Below, in pieces: positions 4,721-58,736 of a DNA stretch of 64,000 nucleotides; within the stretch, counting starts at the first letter, position 1, and each line of letters starts with the position of its first letter. The translations under genes were made by a program, and so were the position numbers. The notes beneath the pieces are model-generated. The model saw nothing but the letters and a program-made list of their open reading frames with translations. It was not told the origin of the DNA and did no database searches. The DNA lies in NCBI GenBank assembly GCA_023132875.1, contig JAGLXN010000007.1, forward strand, positions 1,262 to 65,261, written 5' to 3'. Source of the stretch: Candidatus Parcubacteria bacterium. GTDB lineage: Bacteria; Patescibacteriota; Minisyncoccia; JAHIHE01; JAGLIN01.

Positions 4721-6334
4721 CTATTTATACTTAAATCTATCAACAACCGCGTAAGCTATATTATCAGAATGATCTCCAATTCTTTCTAAATTTGTCAAAA
4801 TCTCAGTAAAATATTTTCCTTTCTCTAAAGAACATATTCCTTTATTCATTCTCTCTAAATGATTGCTATGAGATTTTTTTACTATTTCATCTACTTTATT
4901 TTCATGCTTTATAATTTCATAAGCAAGCTTTAAATTATCTTCTTCTAAAGATTTTATAACAAGATTTTGCATAATTTTTAATTTACCGAATATCGCAGTG
5001 AGTTCTCGGATCGCTTTCTCGGAAAATTCCATTCTGTCTTCTTTTATATCAACGAACAATTCAGAAACGGTTAAAACATGATCAGAAAGATGCTCTAAAT
5101 CAGTTGTAATGTGCATCAAGCTATAAAGCTTCATTAGATCTTTTTTATTAAGATTTTGCTGTGAAATCTGTGCTAGATATTCTGAGATTTTTCCTGTCAT
5201 TTCGTCCATTTCTTTCTCGTATTCTTCAACTTTTTTAAGCAAATCAGTTTTATTTTCAAAAAATATTAATTTTGATACTTCTAACATTTCATTTACAGTT
5301 TTTGCCATATCCACAACAGCACGATTAGCTTGTCCAAGAGCAACAGAGGGAGTATAAAGTAATTTTCTACTCAAATAGGAAAGCTTGGACTCTTCAGTCT
5401 TAATCTCCGGAGTATGTTTGTTTATAAATTTTGCTATAAAAGGAATAAACGGAAGAAATATTAAAGCGGTTATAATATTATACAGCGTATGCCCATTTGC
5501 TATTTGCCTTCCCATGTCATCTGAGGTAATGCTTGCTAAATAATCAAAGTATTTGAAAAACAATAAGAAAAATATAATTCCGAATATATTAAATAACAAA
5601 TGCATAATAGCAATGCTGGTCAAAAAACCTTTTCGCTTGAGACCCATATAAATAACTTTCAAGCTTGAACCAAGATTTACGCCCAAGATCATAAAAAGAG
5701 CCGTGCTGAGATCCACAATTTGCGTTGCTCCAAGCGCGACAATAATAACGGAAGTCGCGCTGCTGCTTTGCAGTAATAATGTAAGAAAAGCTAAAATAAA
5801 TATATAAGCAATTTTGACAGAACTAAACTGATTGATAAAATCAATAGCTATTTGATTATGGGAAACAGATTGCATTCCGTTAAAAACAAAATACATTCCC
5901 AGGAATAAAAAACTGAATCCGATAATAGCTTCCCCAATATTCTTTTTTATTTTACGGACAGCAAAAATGTGAATGAAGACTCCGACCGTTAAAATCGGCA
6001 AAGCATAAATTCCTATCTGAAAAGAAGCAAGCTGAGTTGTTATTGTGCTTCCAATATTAGCGCCAAGCATAGCGGAAACAGCTCCGCTATAACCCAAAAG
6101 ACCAGCACTCATAAATCCGATAAGCATTGTAATTGTAGTGCTGCTGCTTTGAATTACGGCTGTTATTCCCGTACCAATCGCTAATCCCTTTATTGGATTA
6201 TCATTCGTTTTTCTAAGCGTTTCTTCCAGCTTAAACCCCATGATTTTTTGTAAACTAACACCCAAAAGATGAATCCCATAAAGAAGAATGGCAAGCCCTC
6301 CTACTATTTCAAATATTGTTGTTAGTTCAAGCAT
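4721..6334 (-). CDS. Na+/phosphate cotransporter family protein with C-terminal PhoU-like domain
   Basis: Multi-TM N-terminal half with the GxxxxSSSxT repeats typical of NptA/YjbB. C-terminal helical PhoU-like region. Confidence 0.8.
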   Translation of the reverse strand: MLELTTIFEIVGGLAILLYGIHLLGVSLQKIMGFKLEETLRKTNDNPIKGLAIGTGITAVIQSSSTTITMLIGFMSAGLLGYSGAVSAMLGANIGSTITTQLASFQIGIYALPILTVGVFIHIFAVRKIKKNIGEAIIGFSFLFLGMYFVFNGMQSVSHNQIAIDFINQFSSVKIAYIFILAFLTLLLQSSSATSVIIVALGATQIVDLSTALFMILGVNLGSSLKVIYMGLKRKGFLTSIAIMHLLFNIFGIIFFLLFFKYFDYLASITSDDMGRQIANGHTLYNIITALIFLPFIPFIAKFINKHTPEIKTEESKLSYLSRKLLYTPSVALGQANRAVVDMAKTVNEMLEVSKLIFFENKTDLLKKVEEYEKEMDEMTGKISEYLAQISQQNLNKKDLMKLYSLMHITTDLEHLSDHVLTVSELFVDIKEDRMEFSEKAIRELTAIFGKLKIMQNLVIKSLEEDNLKLAYEIIKHENKVDEIVKKSHSNHLERMNKGICSLEKGKYFTEILTNLERIGDHSDNIAYAVVDRFKYK

Positions 6335-18907: not shown

Positions 18908-18943
18908 GATTATATTGCTGTATTGCTGTATTGTTACCAGCTG

Positions 18944-19037
18944 GCTCCATTGTGGCGGAGCCCTGTGGAGCCTTATGCAAATCGGGGAAAAGTTTGCTAA
19001 AGTCACAAAAGGCTCCAGTCAGGAGACTGGAGCCAAC
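18944..19037. repeat. cluster of GC-rich GGCTCC-stem hairpins
   Basis: ggctccattgtggcggagcc and ggctccagtcaggagactggagccaac. The latter is near-identical to the copy at 23056..23082. Confidence 0.8.
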
Positions 19038-19199
19038 GAATAAACCAACAGATAAAACAAAAAACAGCTCTTTCAAAAACTGTTTTTCTGAACTTTGAAA
19101 TTTAATTTCCTTTTTTTCATTCCATAATATTATCATTCTGAATTTATTTCAGAATTCTCTACTTACTACAATAAACGAACCTAACTAATAAAAAATAAG

Positions 19200-19493
19200 T
19201 CAGCTATTGCTGACTCGTTGAAAGATGAACATGGTATTTATAGGCTCATAGATTATTTCTAAATCCTTTCCTTTTTTATTTTCAGAAGTAAAATAATTTT
19301 CTTTTACTTTTAAAAAGTGCATTGTAGAAAGTTTATAACCAGCCGTCCCAAAGTGTCTTATAACATGCTCTATATCTGCAAATATTTCTTCTTTTGTTTC
19401 AAAACCATCATCAACTATCGCAGATAGATGTATTCCACCTTTTTCTTTTTTTAAACTTGCATGCACAGAAATAGTTTGTATTTCTTCTTTCAA
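19200..19493 (-). CDS. hypothetical 97-aa protein, antisense within the atp gene cluster
   Basis: Intact ORF on the opposite strand between atpD and atpC. No family recognised. Confidence 0.4.
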   Translation of the reverse strand: MKEEIQTISVHASLKKEKGGIHLSAIVDDGFETKEEIFADIEHVIRHFGTAGYKLSTMHFLKVKENYFTSENKKGKDLEIIYEPINTMFIFQRVSNS

Positions 19494-19547
19494 AATTTTT
19501 CCTCCTCAATATCTTTATTTAATAATAATACTATATTAATTAAACTT

Positions 19548-19970
19548 ATGTCAACATCTAAAATAAACCTCCAAATCATAACCCCAGAAAAAATCGCCTA
19601 TAAAGATAAAGCAGATCAGATCACTTTGCCAACGGAAGACGGCGAAATAACCGTGATGGCAAATCATATTCCGCTGATTAGCACGATGAAGCACGGAGAA
19701 TTGATTATCAAAAACGACGGAAAAGAAATTCCGATGGCTGTTTGCAATGGCTTTATTGAAGTCAGAGGAAATTGTATTATTATCATGACCGATATTGCCG
19801 AACGAGTGGAAGAAATTGATGAACAAAAAGCGGAAGAAGCAAAGAAAAAAGCAAAAGATTTGTTAAAAGAAAAAGACAGGATGTCTGATGTCGCGTTTGC
19901 GGACGCGACAGCGTTGTTAGAAAAGTCTTTGGCGAGGATTAGAGTGGCGAGGAAAAGGGAGAGAAGGTAA
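19548..19970 (+). CDS. atpC: F0F1 ATP synthase subunit epsilon
   Basis: MSTSKINLQIITPEK..ITVMANHIPLI..NGFIEV is a typical epsilon beta-sandwich plus C-terminal helix. Start moved to the ATG at 19548. Confidence 0.85.
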   Translation: MSTSKINLQIITPEKIAYKDKADQITLPTEDGEITVMANHIPLISTMKHGELIIKNDGKEIPMAVCNGFIEVRGNCIIIMTDIAERVEEIDEQKAEEAKKKAKDLLKEKDRMSDVAFADATALLEKSLARIRVARKRERR

Positions 19971-20207
19971 AAATTGAATTATGAATCAGGAATAATGAAT
20001 TGGGAATTATAAATTTAGTTTGCCGATTTCATAGCAATGATAGCCCCGTGGAACCTAAATGCAGAACTGTACAGGTCAGACCATCTAATAACCGGAATTT
20101 ACCCTTCAGGGTTTCAAAAACCGCTGTAAATACAGAAATAAAATCCTAAAGGATAAATTCCATTAACAAAAATTATTGTTAATCTGTATAAAACCAGCAA
20201 AGTGTTT

Positions 20208-20252
20208 AAATTCAAAATTCATTATTCTAAATTCTAATATAATGAATATTCA
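20208..20252. repeat. 45-bp segment spanning the prmC start codon that is repeated inverted at 21780..21824
   Basis: aaattcaaaattcattattctaaattctaatataATGaatattca versus the reverse complement of 21780..21824, 44/45 identical. Confidence 0.9.
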
Positions 20253-21204
20253 CCAATCCCTCAAAATTTCCACCAATAAACTTAAATTACAAAACATTCC
20301 TTCCGCCGACCTTGATGCGGAAGTTTTGTTATTGGAAGCGTTAAATAGAAGTAGATATAAAAAATTAGACAAAAGCTGGTTGTATATAAATGATAATTAC
20401 GAATTAAACAAAAACGAAGAAAAATTATTTAATAGTTTTATAAATCAAAGATTAAAAAACAAGCCAGTTGCTTATATAATAAATAGAAAAGAATTTTATG
20501 GCTACGATTTTTATGTTGACGAAAATGTTCTGATCCCCCGCCCTGAAACAGAATTCATTGTTGAAGAAGTTTTGAAAATTTTAAACCCCCTTAGCCCCCC
20601 CATTCGGCTATCGCTCGGAGCAGGCTCTTATCAGAGGGAAAATAGCGATTTCACTCTAATTGACATTGGAACTGGTTCGGGTTGCATAATAATAAGCGTT
20701 TTAAATGAGCTTGCAAAAAGAAAAGGAGATGATGTTGTAGAAAACGCTTACGCAAATGATATTTCTTTAAAAGCAATCAAAATCGCAAAACGCAACGCAA
20801 ATAAATATAACTTGAACAAAAAAATAAAATTTGTCGCAAATGATTTTGAAAAATTTTTAAATAAAAAAAATATTTATAACTCCGACGAACTTGTCATTAC
20901 AGCTAATCTTCCATATATAAAAAATGATGATTACAAAAATCTTTCTAAAAATATAAAAAAGTACGAACCCAAGATTGCGCTTGCAGCGGGAAAAGACGGA
21001 CTCGTCTATATAGAAAAATTAGTTGATTCTGTATTAAAAATCAAGAAAAAATACAAGCAAAAAATATATGTTCTTATTGAAGCAGATCCAAATCAAATGA
21101 GTAAAATAACTGCTATAATAAACAAAAAATCAGCTAACGCGCGTATTAAAATAATTAAAGATTTGAGCGGAAAAAAAAGAATTGCCGTATTGTCATATTG
21201 CTAA
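20242..21204 (+). CDS. prmC: release factor glutamine N5-methyltransferase PrmC/HemK
   Basis: LIPRPETE, the SAM motif IDIGTGSGC, and the NPPY-equivalent NLPY. Start placed at the MNIHQSL ATG (20242); the ORF-track N-terminal extension reads through the leader repeats. Carries a GC-rich ~23-aa insertion at ~20585-20655. Confidence 0.8.
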   Translation: MNIHQSLKISTNKLKLQNIPSADLDAEVLLLEALNRSRYKKLDKSWLYINDNYELNKNEEKLFNSFINQRLKNKPVAYIINRKEFYGYDFYVDENVLIPRPETEFIVEEVLKILNPLSPPIRLSLGAGSYQRENSDFTLIDIGTGSGCIIISVLNELAKRKGDDVVENAYANDISLKAIKIAKRNANKYNLNKKIKFVANDFEKFLNKKNIYNSDELVITANLPYIKNDDYKNLSKNIKKYEPKIALAAGKDGLVYIEKLVDSVLKIKKKYKQKIYVLIEADPNQMSKITAIINKKSANARIKIIKDLSGKKRIAVLSYC

Positions 21205-21267
21205 ATTGTTATATTATTATTGCGTTATGCATAACAATTTGACAATAGAGCAATTCAACAATTTAAA

Positions 21268-21306
21268 TAAATCTAAAACACGGCTTCAACCGTGTTTTAG
21301 ATTTGC
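21268..21306. terminator. bidirectional intrinsic terminator hairpin
   Basis: Perfect stem atctaaaacacgg/ccgtgttttagat with loop cttcaa, A/T-rich on both sides. Lies between convergent prmC and the histone-like gene. Confidence 0.6.
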
Positions 21307-21312
21307 AAAATA

Positions 21313-21522
21313 TTACTTTCTCTTTCTAGCTGGTTTTCTTTTAGCAACTTTTCTTTTGGCTGGTTTTCTTTTAGCAACTTTTCTTTTGGCTGGTTTTCTT
21401 TTAGCAGTTTTTTTGACGACTCTTTTCTTAGCTGGTTTTTTTGCAACTTTTCTTTTAACAACTTTCCTTTTTGCGGGTTTTTTAGCAACTTTTCTTTTGG
21501 CTGGTTTTCTTTTTGTAACCAC
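21313..21522 (-). CDS. lysine/alanine-rich histone H1-like basic repeat protein
   Basis: GTG start 7 nt after a strong SD (AGAGGAGGTGGAG). Tandem PAKRKVAKK repeats are encoded by 27-bp DNA repeats. The overlapping plus-strand ORF 21182..21553 is the repeat shadow. Confidence 0.65.
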   Translation of the reverse strand: MVTKRKPAKRKVAKKPAKRKVVKRKVAKKPAKKRVVKKTAKRKPAKRKVAKRKPAKRKVAKRKPARKRK

Positions 21523-21779
21523 GAAACTCCACCTCCTCTCTATATTAAGTTAGCACAAATTAAATTCCAATAATAAAAATAATGCGTTATATTTTTATCA
21601 AATGTGTTAAAAGTTCATTCAAAGATTTAATTTTTATTTTATACCTTAAAAAAATTTTAAACCTTTTCTACTTTAATTATATATTAAAAAAAATAATTTA
21701 CAATACCTTGTCAATAGTTAGGTGTCCTACATCTAGAATTTTTTTTCCTAATTTTTTTGTGGAAATTTTAAAAACTTGT

Positions 21780-21824
21780 TGAATATTCATTGTATTAGAA
21801 TTTAGAATAATGAATTTTGAATTT
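21780..21824. repeat. inverted copy of the prmC promoter/5' end
   Basis: 44/45 identity to 20208..20252 in reverse complement. The minus strand then encodes a 32-aa ORF MNIQQVFKISTKKLGKKILDVGHLTIDKVL that resembles the PrmC N-terminus MNIHQSLKISTNKLKLQNIP. Confidence 0.85.
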
Positions 21825-22164
21825 AAATATTCTACTAATCTCATTGCCATGTATAATTGTGAAATTTTAGGTTTTGTAAAACTTAATATGTTCTCAATTT
21901 CTTAGAATAGCATAAAATCAACAAATCAAACTTATATTCCCCATTCATTATTCTTGATTCGTAATTCGTAATTCAATTTTTATCTCCTCTTCCTTGCCAC
22001 CCTAATTTTTGTTAATATTCTTTCAGCAATATCGATTATAATAATAAGCCACTGCTTATTATCTGTTTTTTGCCTAAAGCTTGCTATTATTAGATGCTTA
22101 TGTTAATATCATTAGTAGGATCTTTAACAATTTAATTAAAAAGAAAGGAGGTGACAAATATAAT

Positions 22165-22815
22165 ATGGAAAGCGAAATTGAAATAACAGATACTGATACA
22201 AAAGGATGGTTTGAAAAAATAAAAAACTGGAGTTATGAAAACTGGCAAACTATTTTAGTAGTATTAATTGTACTTATTGTCGGAATTAGCGCCTATAATT
22301 ACAACCAACAAAATAATGATAATTTAAATCCTGCTATTATTGTTGATGACGATAAATCTAGCGAAAATGACAAAGAAAATGAAATTGAAAATAATAATAC
22401 CGAAGAAAGCGACCAAGAAGCTGTAGCGGAAAATAAAGATCAAGAAGAAGCGGCTCAAGAGGATAATAAAACAGAACTTAACAAAAATACAAACAAAGAA
22501 AAAATTGAGAAAGTTTCTTCAAGCTCAGATGATTATGGAAAAACATATACAGTTTCAGCTAATAGCGGAGAAGGAATTACTCATTTATCAAGAAGAGCGT
22601 TGGAAATATACATACAAGAAACTGCAAATGGCTCTGATTTAACTAAAGAACAAAAAATATACGCAGAGGATTATATTCAAAATAGAACTGGAAATGAAAA
22701 AATAAATATTGGGCATCAAGAAACTTTTTCAGAAAGTTTAATAAAAGACGCTATTTCAAACGCTAATAACTTATCAGAAAAGTCACTTAAAAATCTTACA
22801 AAATACATAAAATAA
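22165..22815 (+). CDS. hypothetical membrane protein with acidic low-complexity region
   Basis: Strong SD (AAGGAGGTGAC) 8 nt before ATG 22165, so the start is reassigned from 22081. One TM helix and a D/E/N-rich linker. Confidence 0.5.
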   Translation: MESEIEITDTDTKGWFEKIKNWSYENWQTILVVLIVLIVGISAYNYNQQNNDNLNPAIIVDDDKSSENDKENEIENNNTEESDQEAVAENKDQEEAAQEDNKTELNKNTNKEKIEKVSSSSDDYGKTYTVSANSGEGITHLSRRALEIYIQETANGSDLTKEQKIYAEDYIQNRTGNEKINIGHQETFSESLIKDAISNANNLSEKSLKNLTKYIK

Positions 22816-22844
22816 AAAACGCATTTATTTCAAAAATTATTAAC

Positions 22845-22876
22845 ACATTAAATAAAAAGAGGCTGGAATTATTCCA
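22845..22876 (+). terminator. intrinsic terminator
   Basis: aaaagaggctggaat/attccagcctctttt is a 13-bp perfect stem followed by T-rich sequence, 30 bp after the stop at 22815. Confidence 0.7.
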
Positions 22877-22941
22877 GCCTCTTTTGTTAGCTATAAATAC
22901 AAATAAACTCGCTTATATGATGGTAATATTCTAAATTTTTC

Positions 22942-22967
22942 TGTCATTCTGAATTTATTTCAGAATC
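22942..22967. repeat. short hairpin repeat tgtcattctgaatttatttcagaatc
   Basis: Second copy at 19133..19157. Shares its terminus with the MITE-like family. Confidence 0.8.
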
Positions 22968-22990
22968 TATTGGCTAAAGTCTCTTGACCA

Positions 22991-23017
22991 TAGAAACGCA
23001 GCAGTGCTGCGTTTCTA
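22991..23017. repeat. palindromic repeat GAAACGCAGCA(A/G)TGCTGCGTTTC
   Basis: Near-identical copies at 2459..2484 and 11346..11372. Confidence 0.9.
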
Positions 23018-23055
23018 CAACACATGATTTCAGAAGATTTTCTTAATTCACAACA

Positions 23056-23082
23056 GGCTCCACACAGGAGCATGGAGCCAAC
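23056..23082. repeat. GGCTCC-stem hairpin repeat
   Basis: ggctccacacaggagcatggagccaac matches the 19011..19037 copy. Confidence 0.8.
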
Positions 23083-23101
23083 AGGTAACGCGCTATTTTC
23101 T

Positions 23102-24523
23102 TTATTTATCCAAACTATTCAACTCCTCTTCATATAAATTGGCGTAAAGCATGACTTTATTTGGATAAAAGAATAATCCTTTTGTTCTCCAACTTCTTCC
23201 TCCTAAATATCTGCCAGCTGCCTCATATTCAGAATTATAATCTCCTCCAATAACTCCTGGAATATCTGAAACCTTGACTGCCATAGCAGCCATAGCGTCT
23301 GTCAAATTCCAAGGATTAGGAGGATAGTGTCTTGTAACACTACTTACTCTGCTTTCATACGCAAGCCAAGTTGAAGGTATAAATTGAGCAGGACCCATAG
23401 CGCCGCCACATCCATAAGTAGGCTCTTTTGAAACCCTAACTGACATTGGATCCAAGTTTAATCTATCCACAATTGAAAAAAACGCATTCTTCTCTGTTTC
23501 GGCTCTTTTTATATAATGTGCTTTTCTTAATGGATAAATTTTTGATAATCTCATATAGCATCCATACATATCATCTTCCCAATTACCGCTTCCCGTGTTT
23601 TTCCCAAGATTAGATTCAACTTTCAATATTCCCAACAAATAAGCAGGACGAACTCCTATGGCTGACCCTATAAGTTTTGCTGCTGAAAAAGCATCATCAA
23701 TTTCTATTTTTTGCCCCAAGCTTTGCAAGTCATATAACTGAGCTCTAAGCGATGGAAGAATGTTTTTATTTTCTGCCAATAATTGCTGGAATTGTTTTTC
23801 TTCTCCTTTTGTAATATCTAAAAGTTCATTGTTTTGAATTTTTAATTCAGACAAAGATTCATTTTGATATGCTCTTATTTGAATTAATTGCCCCTTCTCT
23901 TCTTGCTGTTCTGTAAGCTCTTCACTTCTCAAATCAAGCTCTTCTTTCTGATTTTTTAAATTAACTATTGTTTTAAACACCTCATTTTTAACAGATTCCA
24001 TAGCATCAACTTTATTGAAAAAATCAGAGAAACTATCTTCCGTCATAAGTATTTCCAAAATAGAATTTTGTTCATAAACATATAATAATTTAAAGAGATC
24101 TTTTAAATTCTTTCTATATGCTTCCTTTTTTATTTCTCCTTCTTCTATTTTTTCCTTAATTTCATCCATTTCCATATCAGATTCTTCAATAGCCAGCCGT
24201 GTCTCTTTTACTTCTAATTCATTTTTATATATCTTATTATTGTATATTGAAATTTCTCTTTTAAAAGTTCTTGCTTTTTGTTGAACTTCTTTAAGCTCCG
24301 TATTAACTTTTTTTATTTCTTCTTCCACTTTTTTTATTTCTTCTTTCAACTCTTCTTTTTTATTATTAACTTCTTCTACATTTATTTCTTCCCTTTCCTC
24401 TTCTACAGATTTAACTATTTCTACTAAAAATACAAAAGATAATAAAAACAAAATAAACAAACCACATAACAAAATTGTTTTGTGGCTGTTTATAATAAAA
24501 CTATTTTTATGTGTTGAATTCAT
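23102..24523 (-). CDS. membrane-anchored coiled-coil protein with C-terminal MltB-like lytic transglycosylase domain
   Basis: N-terminal TM helix, ~250 aa of E/K-rich coiled coil, and a C-terminal GAMGPAQFIPSTW motif as in family-3 lytic transglycosylases (MltB/Slt35). Confidence 0.55.
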   Translation of the reverse strand: MNSTHKNSFIINSHKTILLCGLFILFLLSFVFLVEIVKSVEEEREEINVEEVNNKKEELKEEIKKVEEEIKKVNTELKEVQQKARTFKREISIYNNKIYKNELEVKETRLAIEESDMEMDEIKEKIEEGEIKKEAYRKNLKDLFKLLYVYEQNSILEILMTEDSFSDFFNKVDAMESVKNEVFKTIVNLKNQKEELDLRSEELTEQQEEKGQLIQIRAYQNESLSELKIQNNELLDITKGEEKQFQQLLAENKNILPSLRAQLYDLQSLGQKIEIDDAFSAAKLIGSAIGVRPAYLLGILKVESNLGKNTGSGNWEDDMYGCYMRLSKIYPLRKAHYIKRAETEKNAFFSIVDRLNLDPMSVRVSKEPTYGCGGAMGPAQFIPSTWLAYESRVSSVTRHYPPNPWNLTDAMAAMAVKVSDIPGVIGGDYNSEYEAAGRYLGGRSWRTKGLFFYPNKVMLYANLYEEELNSLDK

Positions 24524-35112: not shown

Positions 35113-35682
35113 TTACAATTCAATTCCATCAACCAGCTCCTCATAATTTAAACTTGTATATTTCCAATTCTCTGGCAATTTATGTTTTTGAAAATTATAT
35201 ATTGTATAATGGTAATGGTTTTTAAAATCTTTCGCGTCTCTTATTATGTGGTCATAAAATGATTTTTGCCATTTGAATTTTGGGATTAAAGTTTGATTTT
35301 GTACGTGTTTTTGGATAAATTTGGTTTGATAATTTTTAATTAGATCCCGCATCCGAAGGCGACACGTCGACGTGTCGCCTTCGTTATGATTATTCATAAT
35401 AATATAATTTATATCCCTTGATATATTCTCTTTTAATGACCTCATTATTTTTGAAATATTAAATTCATTATTTGGATGAATCATTAAATTTAAATGATCA
35501 TAAATTATGCAAAACCCATATAATTTAAATTTCTTTACTTCTTTACATAATTTTAATTCTTCAACCAACAATTCGCAAAATATTAACTCTTTAAAATACG
35601 GAAAATTTTGAAATGTTTTTGTGACGATGAAATAAACATTATTATCTATAAAATCACGCTTTTGTGAATTGCGATGCTGCAT
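35113..35682 (-). mobile_element. REP-associated tyrosine transposase (RAYT / IS200-like Y1) family protein, HUH motif degenerate
   Basis: C-terminal KWQKSFYDHIIRD..NHYHYTIYN matches the RAYT WQ(R/K)x(Y/F)(Y/W)DHxIR...YIxxNP motif. The HUH position reads DHLNL. A REP-like palindrome lies inside the ORF. Confidence 0.55.
35352..35381. repeat. REP-like perfect palindrome cgaaggcgacacgtcgacgtgtcgccttcg
   Basis: 30-bp perfect palindrome, GC-rich, in frame within the RAYT gene. A related copy is at 62825..62851. Confidence 0.85.
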
Positions 35683-41588: not shown

Positions 41589-41720
41589 ATATTTAAATTT
41601 TAGATTGTTATACTATTATATTGCTAAATTGTTACATTGCTATACTGCTATAATAGCTTTTTTTGAAAATTTAGGCAAATCTATTTGGAATTATGAATCA
41701 GGAGTTATGAATTAAAAATA

Positions 41721-42110
41721 TTATAATTTCTTTTCCATCAAAACAGAAGTTTTCTTATCTTGTATTATTTTATATCCTAATCTTTGATATAATTTTTTAG
41801 CTGGATTACTTTTAAAAACAGTAAGTTGAATTTTACTTATATTTTTTTGAAACGCTTTTTTTTTCAATTAATTTCATTAAATAAGTTCCTACTCCTTTGC
41901 CCTTCATTAATCCAGAAACTTGCATATTCTCAAAATAAAAAAGTTTGGGTTCTGTAGCAAAATTGGTAATCTTGCAACATTGCTTTCCGAATAGTTAAAT
42001 TTAATTTGCCAACTTTTATTTTCATAATTAAACTATATTATCTTCCTTCTCGCCAAATCTGGAATAATTTTATTTTTCACAATCGGAGAAATCTCCACCA
42101 AATCACTCAT
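41721..42110 (-). pseudogene. GNAT N-acetyltransferase pseudogene (frameshifted)
   Basis: Minus-strand pieces MSDLVEISPIVKNKIIPDLA..(stop)..QVSGLMKGKGVGTYLMKLIEKKAF..KIQLTVFKSNPAKKLYQRLGYKII sit in different frames and are joined at A-homopolymers. They parallel the intact GNAT at 44726..45196. Confidence 0.6.
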
Positions 42111-42252
42111 ATTTTTTGCACATCCTATCTAATGTTTTACTTATTGAGTCCAGTTTTTTAATAAAACCCCTAAATTGATCTCTTAAATCTATTAAAATAG
42201 CTAAAACTTCCTCTTCGGTATATTTTTTCTTTTGCTTTATTATCTTTCTCAT
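42103..42252 (-). CDS. 49-aa ORF overlapping the GNAT pseudogene start (possible antitoxin-like partner)
   Basis: MRKIIKQKKKYTEEEVLAILIDLRDQFRGFIKKLDSISKTLDRMCKKYE. Its stop overlaps the GNAT ATG in ATGAGTGA. No SD. Coding status is unproven. Confidence 0.25.
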   Translation of the reverse strand: MRKIIKQKKKYTEEEVLAILIDLRDQFRGFIKKLDSISKTLDRMCKKYE

Positions 42253-42309
42253 CTCTAAAAATAAAACTAATTTAAAAAATGCTTAATACTTACTACTAAC
42301 TACCTCTTC

Positions 42310-43563
42310 TTACGGCAAAAAAGTTTTAAAAATCTTTCTCACTTTTTGCCCAACTCCGCCCAACGATGGCAGTTTAAATTTTCCGCCGCTAGAGGAAAAA
42401 ACTCCGTTTTCATCAGCTTCCCACATAATAAGCCCCATCACCGTAGCAAATGAAGGATCATCAACCCTATCAATTATTCCATTTAACTCAATAGGAAAAC
42501 CGACTTGCGCCGGCAGTCTAAGAGTTTCTTTCGCCATAGCAACAATTCCAGGCATTTTAGCGCCGCCACCGGTTATAACAGCTCCTGCCGGAAGCATGCC
42601 GCTTCTGTCAATTTTTTTAAGCTCTTTGTCTACCATTACAAATATTTCTTCAACTCTCGCTTCAATAATTTCTGCAATATACTTTCTGGTAAAAACTCCT
42701 TCTTCGTTTTTGTCAATCTGAGAAAGATCTATCTTATCTTTCTTGCTTATTTCCGCGGTAAGCACTGTACCGTACTCAAGTTTTATTTTTTCAGCAACAT
42801 CGATTGAGGTTCTGAGCCCTATAGCAATGTCATTCGTAATATGTCCTGCTCCGATCGGAATAACAGTTGAATGCAATATATTACCATCTTCAAAAACAGA
42901 AATTCCAGTCGTGCCTTTTCCAATATCAATTACAACCACGCCTAATTCTCTTTGGCGCTTTAACAAAACCGCTTTCGCGGCGGCAAGAGGAGAAAAAACC
43001 AAATCATCTATATCAATTCCGCAGCGCTGTATGCATTTATATAAATTTTTTATAAATGGAACTGACCCTTCGACCACTAAGGCATTTACTTCTAACCGCA
43101 CGCCATTCATTCCTATTGGATCTTTTATTTGTTCTTGTCCGTCAATCGTATAACTGCACGGAATCACATCAATTATTTCCTTATTATTTGGCATTGATAT
43201 TGCTTGTGAAGCAATAATAACTCTGTTTATGTCTTCCTCACTGATTTCTCCATCTGCCCTTGAAACAGCAACAACGCCTTTGGAAAATTGAGAACATATA
43301 TGATTTCCATTTATACTCACGAACGCATGTTCAACTGGGATTCCTGCTGTTCTTTCTGCTAATTCCTTTGATTTAGTTATTGCATTGATAGTTTCTTCAA
43401 TATCAACAACAACTCCATTATTAATCCCAAATGAAGGAGCCGTTCCAACTCCTAAAATTAGAGGCTTTGACTCTTCTCCCTGTTTCTGAGAAATAACAGT
43501 TCGAACAGCGCTAGCCCCAATATCAATTCCTATTAAAATATCTCCTCTTGACATAGAATTCAT
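42310..43563 (-). CDS. ftsA: cell division protein FtsA
   Basis: Actin-fold ATPase with DIGASAVR and FtsA-specific regions. Located immediately upstream of ftsZ. Confidence 0.9.
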   Translation of the reverse strand: MNSMSRGDILIGIDIGASAVRTVISQKQGEESKPLILGVGTAPSFGINNGVVVDIEETINAITKSKELAERTAGIPVEHAFVSINGNHICSQFSKGVVAVSRADGEISEEDINRVIIASQAISMPNNKEIIDVIPCSYTIDGQEQIKDPIGMNGVRLEVNALVVEGSVPFIKNLYKCIQRCGIDIDDLVFSPLAAAKAVLLKRQRELGVVVIDIGKGTTGISVFEDGNILHSTVIPIGAGHITNDIAIGLRTSIDVAEKIKLEYGTVLTAEISKKDKIDLSQIDKNEEGVFTRKYIAEIIEARVEEIFVMVDKELKKIDRSGMLPAGAVITGGGAKMPGIVAMAKETLRLPAQVGFPIELNGIIDRVDDPSFATVMGLIMWEADENGVFSSSGGKFKLPSLGGVGQKVRKIFKTFLP

Positions 43564-56239: not shown

Positions 56240-56806
56240 ATGAAAAAAATAAAAATAGGGGTTTCGGGAGATGTTGGCAGTTTTTCAGAGCAAGCCACGA
56301 ATGAATACGCCAGAAAAAACGGAATTAAAAACTATGAAATTAAGTGCCTTATTTCCGTAGAAAAAGTACTCACTGAACTTGACAAAAAGAAAATAGATCT
56401 TGGAATTTTTCCTATTGAAAATTCAAATGGCGGGATTGTGATTGAAAGCGTAAATGCAATCAGCAAGCATATTTTTAAAATAAAAAATATTTTTGAAATC
56501 CCGGTAATTCATTGTTTGTTGACAAAACCCGGTATTGAAAAAGAGGATATAAAAAATATAGCTTCTCATGATCAAGCTTTAAAGCAATGCAAAATGTATT
56601 TAAAAAGAAAATGGACAGAAACTCAATTGCAGGAAACTAAAGATACAGCAAAATCAGCAAAAGATCTTTCAGAAGGAAAATTATCTGAAGACACCGCGGT
56701 CCTCGCTCCTGAAAGCTGCGCCACTTTATACGGCCTTATCGTTATGGAAAAAGGAATCCAGGATTTAAAATTTAATTTCACGAATTTTTTGGCAGTGGAG
56801 AAGTAG
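56240..56806 (+). CDS. prephenate dehydratase (PDT) catalytic-domain protein without ACT domain, paralog 1
   Basis: The IGVSGDVGSFSEQA, FPIENSNGG and SHDQALKQC segments follow the PDT-domain pattern. The catalytic TRF motif reads FTNF. 188 aa, so there is no room for the regulatory ACT domain. Confidence 0.7.
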   Translation: MKKIKIGVSGDVGSFSEQATNEYARKNGIKNYEIKCLISVEKVLTELDKKKIDLGIFPIENSNGGIVIESVNAISKHIFKIKNIFEIPVIHCLLTKPGIEKEDIKNIASHDQALKQCKMYLKRKWTETQLQETKDTAKSAKDLSEGKLSEDTAVLAPESCATLYGLIVMEKGIQDLKFNFTNFLAVEK

Positions 56807-56882
56807 GAATATATTATAAAATCTTATTTAAAAATTAAACTATGTAAATAAAAAAATAGAGAGTGAAGTTTCACTCTCATTT

Positions 56883-57710
56883 TTAAATTGTCTCTGCTTT
56901 TGGATAAGATCCTAAAACAACTATCTCTTTCACTTTACTAATTACTTCTGTTAACGCATTTTTGAAATTTTCATCATCACAATGACCATCTGCATCAACA
57001 AAGAATGTCCGAGAACTCGATATCTCTTCTGCAGGAAGAGACGAAAGCATTGTCATATTTATTTTGTTCTTTGTAAATATGTGCAAAACTTTTTCTAAGG
57101 AACCAGCCTTATCCTCTACCTTAAAGAATAATGTTGTTTTATCTTTTCCCGTAGGTTTTGTTTTATTTTTATTTAAGAGCATAAATCTTGTTATATTATC
57201 TCCTTGATCATTTATATCTCTTTCTATAATCGCAATATTAAATTCCTTTGAAGCTTCTTCAGAGCCAATCGCTGCAATTGACTTATCCTTTGTTTTTGAA
57301 GCCAACTCAACGGCTTCTGCCGTGCTATTAGTTATTTTTATACAAATATCATTTAATCCTCCTAAATATCCAATACACTGCATAATCCCCTGCGAATGAG
57401 AATAAACAACTTTAACATCTTCTATCTTGCCATAACCAACAAGACACTGTTGAATTTTAAGATATAGTTCTCTAATACCGTAAAATGGCTTCATCAATTG
57501 TAGTTCTTTTAGCACATCAATAACTGCCTTTCCTGTTGAATTTGATATAGGAACAACAATTTCATCTACTTCATTATTTTTAAAAGCCTCAATCAAACTT
57601 TTAAAGTCTGAATGAAACACTATTTTAGTTTCATTGTATTTCTTTGCAAACTTAATAGTAGCAACATGAGAAAAGGTCGCTGCTGGACCTAAGCATCCGA
57701 TTGTTATCAT
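56883..57710 (-). CDS. pheA: prephenate dehydratase (PDT + ACT domains)
   Basis: GPAATFSH, NITRFMLL (TRF motif) and ACT-domain ESRP-equivalent LSSLPAEEI are present. Start reassigned to MITIG (ATG at 57710), which sits 9 nt after AAGGAGG. Confidence 0.75.
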   Translation of the reverse strand: MITIGCLGPAATFSHVATIKFAKKYNETKIVFHSDFKSLIEAFKNNEVDEIVVPISNSTGKAVIDVLKELQLMKPFYGIRELYLKIQQCLVGYGKIEDVKVVYSHSQGIMQCIGYLGGLNDICIKITNSTAEAVELASKTKDKSIAAIGSEEASKEFNIAIIERDINDQGDNITRFMLLNKNKTKPTGKDKTTLFFKVEDKAGSLEKVLHIFTKNKINMTMLSSLPAEEISSSRTFFVDADGHCDDENFKNALTEVISKVKEIVVLGSYPKAETI

Positions 57711-57744
57711 CTTATGATTCCTCCTTATATTGTAAATGTGCAGA

Positions 57745-57820
57745 ATGTCCTGGGTAAGATTTGAACTCACGACTCCATGCTTTTCACACAGACTCTATGC
57801 CAAACTAAGACACTAGGGCT
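57745..57820 (-). other. tRNA-like fragment (T-arm plus 3' acceptor half), possible tRNA pseudogene or integration-site remnant
   Basis: Minus strand reads gtgag-TTCAAAT-cttac followed by ccaggac, i.e. a T-stem-loop plus a 7-nt 3' acceptor strand. The matching 5' acceptor strand (gccctag) pairs at only 5/7, and the anticodon loop is non-canonical. Confidence 0.3.
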
Positions 57821-58169
57821 TTTTATTTTTATTTTTGTCCATTCAAGTGAACTTCTTTTTTGAATCCACCCTCTAAAATTTCAATAACTCTTGAAACCCT
57901 AAAGGGTAAATTCCATTTATTATAATTTTAAACATCAAAAAAACCATCTTTGCGATGGGCCATTATGAGAAATATTATACTAAAACAACAACCTATCGCA
58001 TATGACGGCTAAAAAAGCTAAAAAAGAAAAATTGGCTGTTTTTTGTATAATTCATAAAATTTTCAACTTATAAACATAATATAGCATACATAAAAAATAT
58101 GTCAATATTTTTGTGACTATTTCACATTTTTATGATAAAATAAGCTTATAAGCATTAAATCCATCAAAA

Positions 58170-58736
58170 ATGAAAAAACTAAAAATAGGAGTCTCAGGCA
58201 ATGTTGGCAGTTTTTCAGAAGAGGCCGCCAATTATTATTGCCACAATAATAATATAAAAAATTATGAAATTCAGTATTTAATAAGCGTCAAGAACACAAT
58301 GGAAGCCCTAAAAAAGGGCGAGATAGACAAGGGCATTTTTCCAATTGAAAATTCAAATGGAGGCATCGTTCATGAAGCGATTTATGCTATGAGCGAATAT
58401 GTTTTTGATATTGAAAATATATTTGAGATTGACGTTAAGCACTGCTTGCTTGCAAAACCGGGAACAAAAGCAAACGACATAAAAAAAATAGCTTCCCATC
58501 CGCAGGCGCTCAAACAATGCAGAATGTATTTGAAGAAAAAATGGGGGAATCTTCAATTACAGGAATATTCTGACACAGCTGACGCGGCAAAAGACTTGCG
58601 TGAAGGAAAAATTCCCCCCGACACCGGAGTAATCGCTTGTAAAAAATGCGCAAAATTATATGAATTGAACCTGCTTGAAGAAGGAATACAAGATTTGAAA
58701 TTCAACTTCACGACATTTATAACGGCGACTATGTAA
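58170..58736 (+). CDS. prephenate dehydratase (PDT) catalytic-domain protein without ACT domain, paralog 2
   Basis: About 55% identical to 56240..56806. The catalytic motif reads FTTF. Confidence 0.7.
   Translation: MKKLKIGVSGNVGSFSEEAANYYCHNNNIKNYEIQYLISVKNTMEALKKGEIDKGIFPIENSNGGIVHEAIYAMSEYVFDIENIFEIDVKHCLLAKPGTKANDIKKIASHPQALKQCRMYLKKKWGNLQLQEYSDTADAAKDLREGKIPPDTGVIACKKCAKLYELNLLEEGIQDLKFNFTTFITATM

Follow-up and report, generated by a model that had tools for sequence, protein, structure and literature searches.

The tufA/tufB genes of Salmonella and rrn-mediated inversions illustrate how paralogous segments in inverted orientation undergo both gene conversion and inversion. In plastid non-coding DNA, small inversions of the Kelchner and Wendel type are associated with hairpins, and cyanobacteria carry short tandemly repeated heptamers (STRR). 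Invertons, among them fimS, hin and the invertible promoters of Bacteroides, are phase-variable, invertible segments bracketed by inverted repeats. In turn, REPs and REPINs, mobilised by RAYTs, have been described as extragenic inverted doublets around a spacer that form long hairpins (PMC3116915, PMC3337134). Here we describe a locus that shares traits with all of these systems and differs from each of them: an inverted repeat of 45 bp that brackets prmC, encoding the release-factor glutamine methyltransferase, and a small histone-like gene. It lies in a stretch of 64,000 nucleotides (the window) of contig JAGLXN010000007.1, from the low-GC, metagenome-assembled genome GCA_023132875.1 of a Candidatus Parcubacteria bacterium (Patescibacteria); counterpart sequences exist in ENA ERZ23498665 and in GCA_030630745.1.

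We give a probability of about 0.6 to the reading in which the atpC-prmC junction was long ago copied in inverted orientation, the copy has since decayed and this repeat is what has been preserved best of it, i.e., a relic duplication kept partly identical by gene conversion. Occasional inversion through the repeat would be possible but is unproven, and the repeat would not be a promoter cassette or a programmed switch.

The two copies of the atpC-prmC junction

The repeat is found where the preliminary description of this DNA, made from the sequence alone, had placed it: 20208-20252 and the reverse complement of 21780-21824 are identical at 44 of 45 positions, and the core widened to 20205-20252 against 21827-21780 (reverse complement) at 47 of 48, the sole mismatch lying at 20240. 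At lower identity, a repeat search extends it to 85 nt at 85% (20196-20280 / 21752-21836). A 23-mer of the core occurs exactly twice in the window even when three mismatches are admitted, and shuffled sequences are expected to give 0.01 occurrences. Alignment of 19770-20290 with the reverse complement of 21742-22052 revealed homology on both sides of the core, which is therefore not an isolated promoter cassette. On the left, homology spans from the interior of atpC (~19777), whose 3′ part from there on belongs to the duplicated unit, to codon 14 of prmC; on the right, it runs from 22047 to 21752, with deletions. The features of the two copies are the following:

19548-19970, plus strand: atpC (ATP synthase epsilon), with Pfam ATP-synt_DE_N and ATP-synt_DE; gene call in L001
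19976-20014, plus strand: array a, five GAATnnn heptads, 5′ arm of the atpC-prmC hairpin (pattern search; Tandem Repeats Finder, period 7/14; minimum free energy (MFE) pairing with array b)
20018-20206, no strand: hairpin loop (spacer) of ~190 bp (BLAST against L102, identity profile)
20205-20252, plus strand: left core, consisting of array b (nnnATTC heptads, 3′ arm of the hairpin), the prmC ATG (20242) and 3 codons; 47/48 to the right core
20242-21204, plus strand: prmC, intact (TIGR03534, Pfam PrmC_N)
21698-21790, minus strand: relic open reading frame (ORF) of 30 aa from the prmC 5′ end, homologous to about codon 14 and then junction sequence; not conserved as a protein
21780-21827, minus strand: right core, consisting of array c, the relic ATG and 3 codons; 47/48 to the left core
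21828-21974, minus strand: right hairpin loop and array d (six GAATnnn heptads, 21936-21974; pattern search, fold)
21982-22047, minus strand: atpC 3′ relic in a single frame, …IIIIDIAERILTKIRVARKRR*, with ~43 codons deleted (alignment, inverted-repeat list)

The left copy is the working junction, in which the atpC stop codon is followed by array a, a spacer of ~190 nt, array b and the prmC ATG. The right copy (~22047-21752, minus strand) presents the order atpC relic, array d, shortened spacer, array c, relic ATG and ~14 prmC codons. Homology thus reaches into fragments of both neighboring genes, as expected of a segmental duplication. The atpC relic carries the motifs …IIIIDIAER…IRVARKRR*, to be compared with …IIIMTDIAER…ARIRVARKRERR* at the C-terminus of atpC. 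At the other end, the relic ORF, starting at 21790, reads MNIQQVFKISTKKLGKKILDVGHLTIDKVL, and the PrmC N-terminus reads MNIHQSLKISTNKL. This frame had been reported as a 32-aa ORF tracking the PrmC N-terminus; the likeness stands, over ~14 residues, but the length is 30 aa. A genuine small protein was rejected, because its counterparts have stop codons or varying lengths: 19 aa in L013, longer in L019, and a stop at codon 5 in both L102 and L103. An ORF of 30-50 aa called at this site by annotation is a prmC relic and not a gene.

Contigs carrying PrmC homologues (~70% identity) all present the same order: atpC(+), prmC(+), small basic gene(-), 216-aa gene(+), and a gene with an SLT domain(-). 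The right copy lies among the following features:

21269-21304, no strand: terminator-like hairpin with a 16-bp stem, between the convergent prmC and histone-like genes (hairpin search)
21313-21522, minus strand: Lys/Arg/Ala-rich repeat protein of 69 aa ("histone-like"), with a GTG start and a strong GGAGGTG Shine-Dalgarno sequence
21676-21714, minus strand: promoter-like site of the histone-like gene, TTGACA at 21714 and TTGTAA-16-TATAAT at 21703-21676 (sigma-70-like scan)
22165-22815, plus strand: conserved membrane/acidic protein of 216 aa, right boundary of the locus (family scan, relatives)

The relic is present in the window and in L013, L019, L102, and L103, always at the same place and joined in the same way to TTGACAAGGTATTGTAA-16-TATAAT, an invariant promoter-like sequence that belongs to the basic gene; the promoter-like sequence of the window is identical in L013, L019, and L102. 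The PrmC proteins of these five have a …LSYC-type C-terminus in common. Six more distant relatives with the same gene order (L010, L012, L020-L023) lack the inverted copy, and the gap between their basic and 216-aa genes measures only about 240-550 nt. Presence in a subclade together with absence from outgroups is the distribution expected of a segmental duplication. Since the relic stands at the same place in four relatives and is absent in six, the duplication is old and limited to one Parcubacteria subclade. A GTDB scan, among whose returned hits the source genome did not figure, yielded four relatives at 55-67% identity that all lack the repeat. Exact-protein look-up of atpD, atpC, PrmC, and a 48-aa relic ORF returned the source assemblies only, hence no independent copy of either junction, and a scan of JGI metagenomes for the conserved relic sequence gave a single match (L101), due to chance.

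In the ancestor of this subclade, a piece comprising at least 190 nt of the atpC 3′ end, the intergenic hairpin and ~18 prmC codons would have been copied. It would have landed in inverted orientation past both prmC and the histone-like gene, where the promoter of the latter and that of the 216-aa gene diverge, a landing site backed by the extent of homology, the shared position and the presence or absence of the copy in relatives. From then on the right copy has decayed as a non-coding relic by deletion, array turnover and stop codons, a decay directly visible across lineages: relics differ in the amount of atpC lost (L102 retains ~190 nt), the arrays of the L019 and L102 right copies have been replaced by unrelated AATATC-type arrays, and the L013 right copy is without the partner arm of the hairpin.

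Homogenisation, one of the two origins that the preliminary description had offered for the near-identity, finds support in these comparisons. The 47/48 core stands against a background of ~75-85% identity; with a background of 80%, the probability of at least 47 matches in 48 positions is 3e-4. The 35 nt upstream of the ATG are identical in both copies of the window, where within-genome identity of the upstream core amounts to 96-100%. Over codons 1-15, the right copy of the window is 89% identical to the right copy of L019, 80% to that of L013 and 73% to its own left copy; being nearer to the right copies of other genomes, it indicates that the two copies are old paralogues. Over the same codons, the left and right copies of L103 are 91% identical and have in common states (ATGAATATCAATxAATCTTTAAAA…) found in no other genome; its left copy is 67-76% identical to other left copies, and its right copy 67-71% to other right copies. 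Both lineage-specific states common to the two copies and tracts of excess identity, the marks of concerted evolution, are thus found. Because the tracts lie at differing positions in each lineage, they argue for independent gene-conversion events and not for one fixed functional element.

From this pattern we infer repeated gene conversion between the left and right copies. The functional left copy would intermittently overwrite the right one, and in the window the overwritten tract would be the 48-bp core. The same recombination, as a crossover, could invert 20253-21779, perhaps occasionally and not driven by a recombinase. As in tufA/tufB and rrn, there are two inverted homologous tracts with concerted evolution, and a crossover would invert the DNA between them; unlike those systems, one copy is here a non-functional junction relic, the identical tract is ~50 bp long and the interval 1.5 kb. 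The locus would accordingly exemplify a partial inverted gene-junction duplication that persists across species of uncultivated, reduced-genome Parcubacteria while it decays and is patched by conversion, and it would reveal homologous recombination on ~50-bp tracts in these organisms.

Possible inversion of the prmC segment

It seems unlikely to us that the locus is an active invertible cassette, in which recombination at the core flips the 1.5-kb prmC/histone-like segment in natural populations. The tail of the atp operon would then be prmC in the standard orientation and the histone-like gene with its promoter in the flipped one. The contig that speaks most directly to this is L008 (2.2 kb), from the sibling sample SAMN18200501. 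It is 100% identical to the window over 21776-23330 and, right after relic codon 5, passes from right-type sequence into a left-type, intact prmC body on the minus strand, open over 159 codons and 87% identical to 20205-20668 of the window. Another contig of the same sample, L018, is 100% identical to the interior of the segment (20754-21705) and has no overlap with L008. A simple flip of a window-like genome was rejected for L008, because its prmC is only 87% identical and its flank 100%. With the prmC body diverged and the flank not, L008 is a mosaic or a chimera: either a recombinant mosaic, hence a real inversion, or an assembly chimera joined through the common core of ~50 bp, in a low-coverage sample containing related species. 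The odds that it represents a real inverted allele are roughly even.

Other observations bear on both sides of the question. All eleven related contigs spanning atpC and prmC have the standard orientation. The reciprocal flipped left junction was not found in contig and protein searches; of these, the protein search, for which an ORF of the flipped left junction was postulated, retrieved the standard relic ORF alone and is an uninformative negative. No serine or tyrosine recombinase was detected by Pfam and NCBIfam scans of the ~50 ORFs of the window, where a RAYT-like HUH protein 15 kb away stands as the sole candidate for DNA processing. A flip would detach prmC from the atp operon, and the anatomy of the locus suggests that the gene would lose atp-operon read-through. 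Gene conversion, for its part, implies physical recombination of the copies.

Moreover, this clade does contain real mosaic alleles whose breakpoints fall at arrays. In L102, a block of ~570 nt, from array a to about prmC codon 105, is 98-100% identical to the window, with flanks at 70-88%, and PrmC alleles are themselves mosaic, P0007 having its first ~113 aa identical to the window PrmC and the remainder diverged. Furthermore, the loop 20018-20206 is inverted in L102 (4777-4965) at 98.6% identity, with exchange points within the arrays; by BLAST, L102 4763-4979 aligns to window 20220-20004 with 3 mismatches in 217. This would imply a very recent loop flip, together with a recent exchange of the ~570-nt block between lineages. 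In the right-copy hairpin, too, the loop has opposite orientations in L019 (1252-1412) and L102 (6556-6400). As the exact identity of the hairpin arms does not exceed 12-14 nt, loop inversion cannot be an assembly artefact. Array pairs around flipping loops are prone to recombination, which makes inversion of the larger segment mechanistically reasonable.

In bearing stem-loops whose loop is found in either orientation among close relatives (20018-20206 against L102; the right loop in L019 against L102), the locus is like the small inversions of chloroplasts; unlike these, the host is bacterial, the arms are tandem heptad arrays and the loops measure 100-200 bp. Loop flipping appears to resemble the plastid hairpin-associated inversions more than recombinase-driven invertons. 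With invertons the locus has in common the inverted repeats flanking a segment (47/48 core; 85 nt at 85%) whose flip would change the upstream context. It differs from them in that no invertase is nearby, the repeats are duplicates of gene fragments and not recombinase sites, and the segment consists of two complete genes, one with its own promoter.

The proposal that the repeats serve as an inversion substrate is therefore plausible, and one contig, L008, carries the predicted flipped junction; it is also unproven, all long related contigs being in the standard orientation. A functional, regularly flipping switch is doubtful. We are also skeptical of a variant in which the array hairpins are recombination-active, the pair flanking prmC and the histone-like gene works as a flip-flop found in both orientations, and L008 is a real molecule formed with no dedicated invertase. 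There is perhaps a slim chance that, under such a variant, the gene at the atp-operon tail would be swapped by the array-mediated process that inverts the 190-bp loop. If L008 were real, a recombinase-independent structural polymorphism would alter the operon context of a termination-factor modifier and of a nucleoid-type protein.

Array hairpins, promoters and mobile elements

In predicted MFE folds, arrays a and b pair and enclose the intergenic region (z = -4.6), and arrays c and d do likewise (z = -3.0); the right-copy loop is homologous to the left loop of L103. In L013, the 64-nt atpC-prmC spacer forms a perfect 29-bp hairpin that begins at the atpC stop and ends 5 nt short of the prmC ATG; in P0006, nothing separates a GAAT array from the ATG. 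A pattern search for GAATnnn arrays in the window gave 21 matches against 1.8 expected, and such arrays occur at two other loci (41688; 48749/48836). Of the 26 co-directional intergenic regions of the window, 17 have folds with z ≤ -3, and for roughly half of the 26 the whole structure lies within the outermost pair. The hairpin loops matched nothing in Rfam at gathering or E-value thresholds, and we found nothing in the literature on such repeats or array hairpins in Patescibacteria or the candidate phyla radiation. The periodic-array hairpins and their flipping loops are a more unusual feature than the prmC repeat.

Throughout the window, most intergenic regions consist of two inverted arrays of tandem repeats of 7-8 nt, of the types TAACAATT, ATGTTAAA, AACTTTT, and GAATnnn, which form long hairpins from the upstream stop codon to the downstream ATG. 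Examples are 13689-13720/13746-13776, 14202-14236/14257-14288, 4606-4641/4681-4711, and 6342-6451/6465-6495, as well as 43561-43595/43701-43729, 46567-46599/46665-46698, and 48745-48773/48832-48853. Like the cyanobacterial STRR, these are tandem heptanucleotide arrays concentrated in intergenic regions; unlike them, they belong to another phylum, have other sequences and, as inverted pairs, close the intergenic region from stop codon to next start.

Against this background, the label of promoter given to the 35 bp upstream of the prmC ATG in the preliminary description is not supported. The left core would be the 3′ arm of the atpC-prmC intercistronic hairpin followed by the prmC start, with no recognisable promoter: no sigma-70-like -35/-10 pair was found for prmC on the plus strand of 20150-20241, by a consensus that may not apply to this phylum, and in L013, where the whole spacer is hairpin, there is no room for a promoter. 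Most simply, prmC would be the distal gene of the atp operon. That the 35-mer might be a general motif upstream of many genes, which the same description had named as part of the evidence that would count against an inversion substrate, was likewise rejected, the core being restricted to two sites; only a generic GAATnnn periodicity recurs, at the two other loci, and the 35-mer belongs to a genome-wide class of periodic-array hairpins. A leader cassette fares better in part: in four species the 25 nt before the ATG show 88-100% conservation at the left copy, but unrelated arrays have taken their place in the right copies of L019 and L102. The idea that prmC is special in lacking a Shine-Dalgarno sequence was rejected, since almost no gene of the window has one; the exceptions are the histone-like and 216-aa genes and possibly comEC.

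A cis-element selected at both sites, whether an RNA or DNA structure or a promoter/operator, is a further possibility to which we give little credence. The left one would serve prmC, and the right one either the histone-like gene (-) or the 216-aa gene (+). Conservation of the core is 88-100% among the left copies of four species; the same range holds for the right copies of the window and L013, and the L103 right copy reaches 80-84%. In L019 and L102, however, the right core has been replaced, and the L013 right copy is without its pairing arm. A hairpin is predicted at the right copy of the window, and in other lineages one is retained there with arrays of different types. A weak plus-strand promoter-like sequence, TTGAAT-18-TAGAAT (21779-21808), points to the 216-aa gene; nevertheless, relatives without the right copy would express the same genes from an intergenic region of 240 nt, and a conserved promoter-like site belonging to the histone-like gene itself lies downstream of the relic. 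The tracts of high identity shift position among lineages, a behavior that conversion fits better than a fixed element.

Some of these observations nonetheless weigh against the relic duplication that we favor. Three of five lineages conserve the right core, and four of the five retain a hairpin, whatever its sequence, at the right copy, so that some structural role, for instance insulation between the divergent promoters, is possible. L008 has the right junction that a crossover inside the core would produce, and if it is real, inversion occurs and the repeat is more than a relic. In addition, gene conversion is deduced from sequence patterns only, and the case against a promoter is built on scanning for the sigma-70 consensus and on the anatomy of L013, in a phylum whose promoters are poorly known.

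Two independent insertions of a mobile hairpin element, akin to miniature inverted-repeat transposable elements or REPINs and possibly mobilised by the RAYT-like protein encoded at 35113-35682, appear quite improbable. In each copy, the inverted arrays around a spacer reproduce the extragenic, hairpin-forming doublet of REPINs (PMC3116915, PMC3337134), a RAYT-like gene exists in the window, GAATnnn arrays recur at the two other loci given above, and PrmC homologues carry in-frame insertions of palindromic elements. The duplicated unit, however, holds an atpC coding relic and prmC codons, a cargo not expected of a mobile element. Unlike REPs, it has no identical seed in high copy, the core being present twice in 64 kb, and its arms are periodic 7-8-mers of several unrelated types. 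The RAYT-like gene scores below the cutoff and, unlike in REP-RAYT systems, is without adjoining arrays. This ORF (35113-35682, minus strand, 189 aa) reaches 74 bits with NF047646 (cutoff 80) and 28 bits with Pfam Y1_Tnp, and has an MBL-fold gene and comEC as close neighbors on either side.

Chance similarity or an assembly artefact can practically be dismissed: the sequence is AT-rich and periodic and the repeat interrupts Logan contigs (start of L009 at 21798, end of L016 at 20011), but shuffles give 0.01 matches and the same architecture is conserved across related species assembled independently from different samples.

Neighboring genes and other repeats

The genes of the region follow the order atpBEFHAGD, a 640-bp insert, atpC(+), prmC(+), the 69-aa gene(-), the 216-aa gene(+), the SLT-domain gene(-) and L25(-). 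The identification of prmC is borne out by NCBIfam TIGR03534 (207 bits, cutoff 199) and by Pfam PrmC_N. For the 69-aa protein, the term histone-like suits its Lys/Arg/Ala-rich, repetitive composition, but there is no Pfam match, and an H1-like NCBIfam model matched only at E=0.66. A similar small minus-strand gene stands at the same place in relatives, and residues 1-16 of the protein match L012 exactly. The Lys/Arg-rich region (21315-21513) is made of 15/30-nt tandem repeats, with lengths from 69 to 88 aa among relatives, and its counterparts contain runs of N in two related assemblies (L013 2903-3002; L103 ~6110-6205).

In the PrmC homologues P0004, P0009, P0013, P0014, P0021, and P0031, the in-frame GC-rich insertions resemble translated palindromic elements (e.g., …IAASLCGAPRND… and …GVHSLEC…YRLKPELQ…); the patch NPLSPPIRLSLGAGSYQRENSDF of the window PrmC (20585-20650) may be one of them.

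The insert between atpD and atpC (18908-19547) contains a minus-strand ORF of 97 aa (19200-19493) with no family match. This site is variable inside the atp operon, with other small ORFs in relatives, among them one for a GIY-YIG protein in L010-L012. Two exact direct copies of a 23-nt sequence that itself forms a small hairpin, TCATTCTGAATTTATTTCAGAAT, lie at 19133-19155 and 22944-22966. Near both copies stand GC-rich GGCTCC…GGAGCC hairpins (19011-19034, 23056-23079), in differing order, and together they resemble additional small repeated palindromic elements or terminators. In the SLT gene, 7 mismatches between the window and L008 fall within 23 nt (23331-23353), inside 1.8 kb otherwise 100% identical, which resembles a micro-recombination or a hypervariable patch.

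Farther away, Rfam calls a tRNA at 57746-57819 on the minus strand (33 bits), where ARAGORN reports zero tRNAs in the window; the call and the 5′ end of the ORF 56883-57770 overlap, and this ORF belongs to a set of three prephenate-dehydratase paralogues (56240-58736). Finally, the long gap between ftsZ and ftsA (41720-42310) appears to contain degraded coding sequence and adjoins the lone GAATnnn array at 41688-41712.

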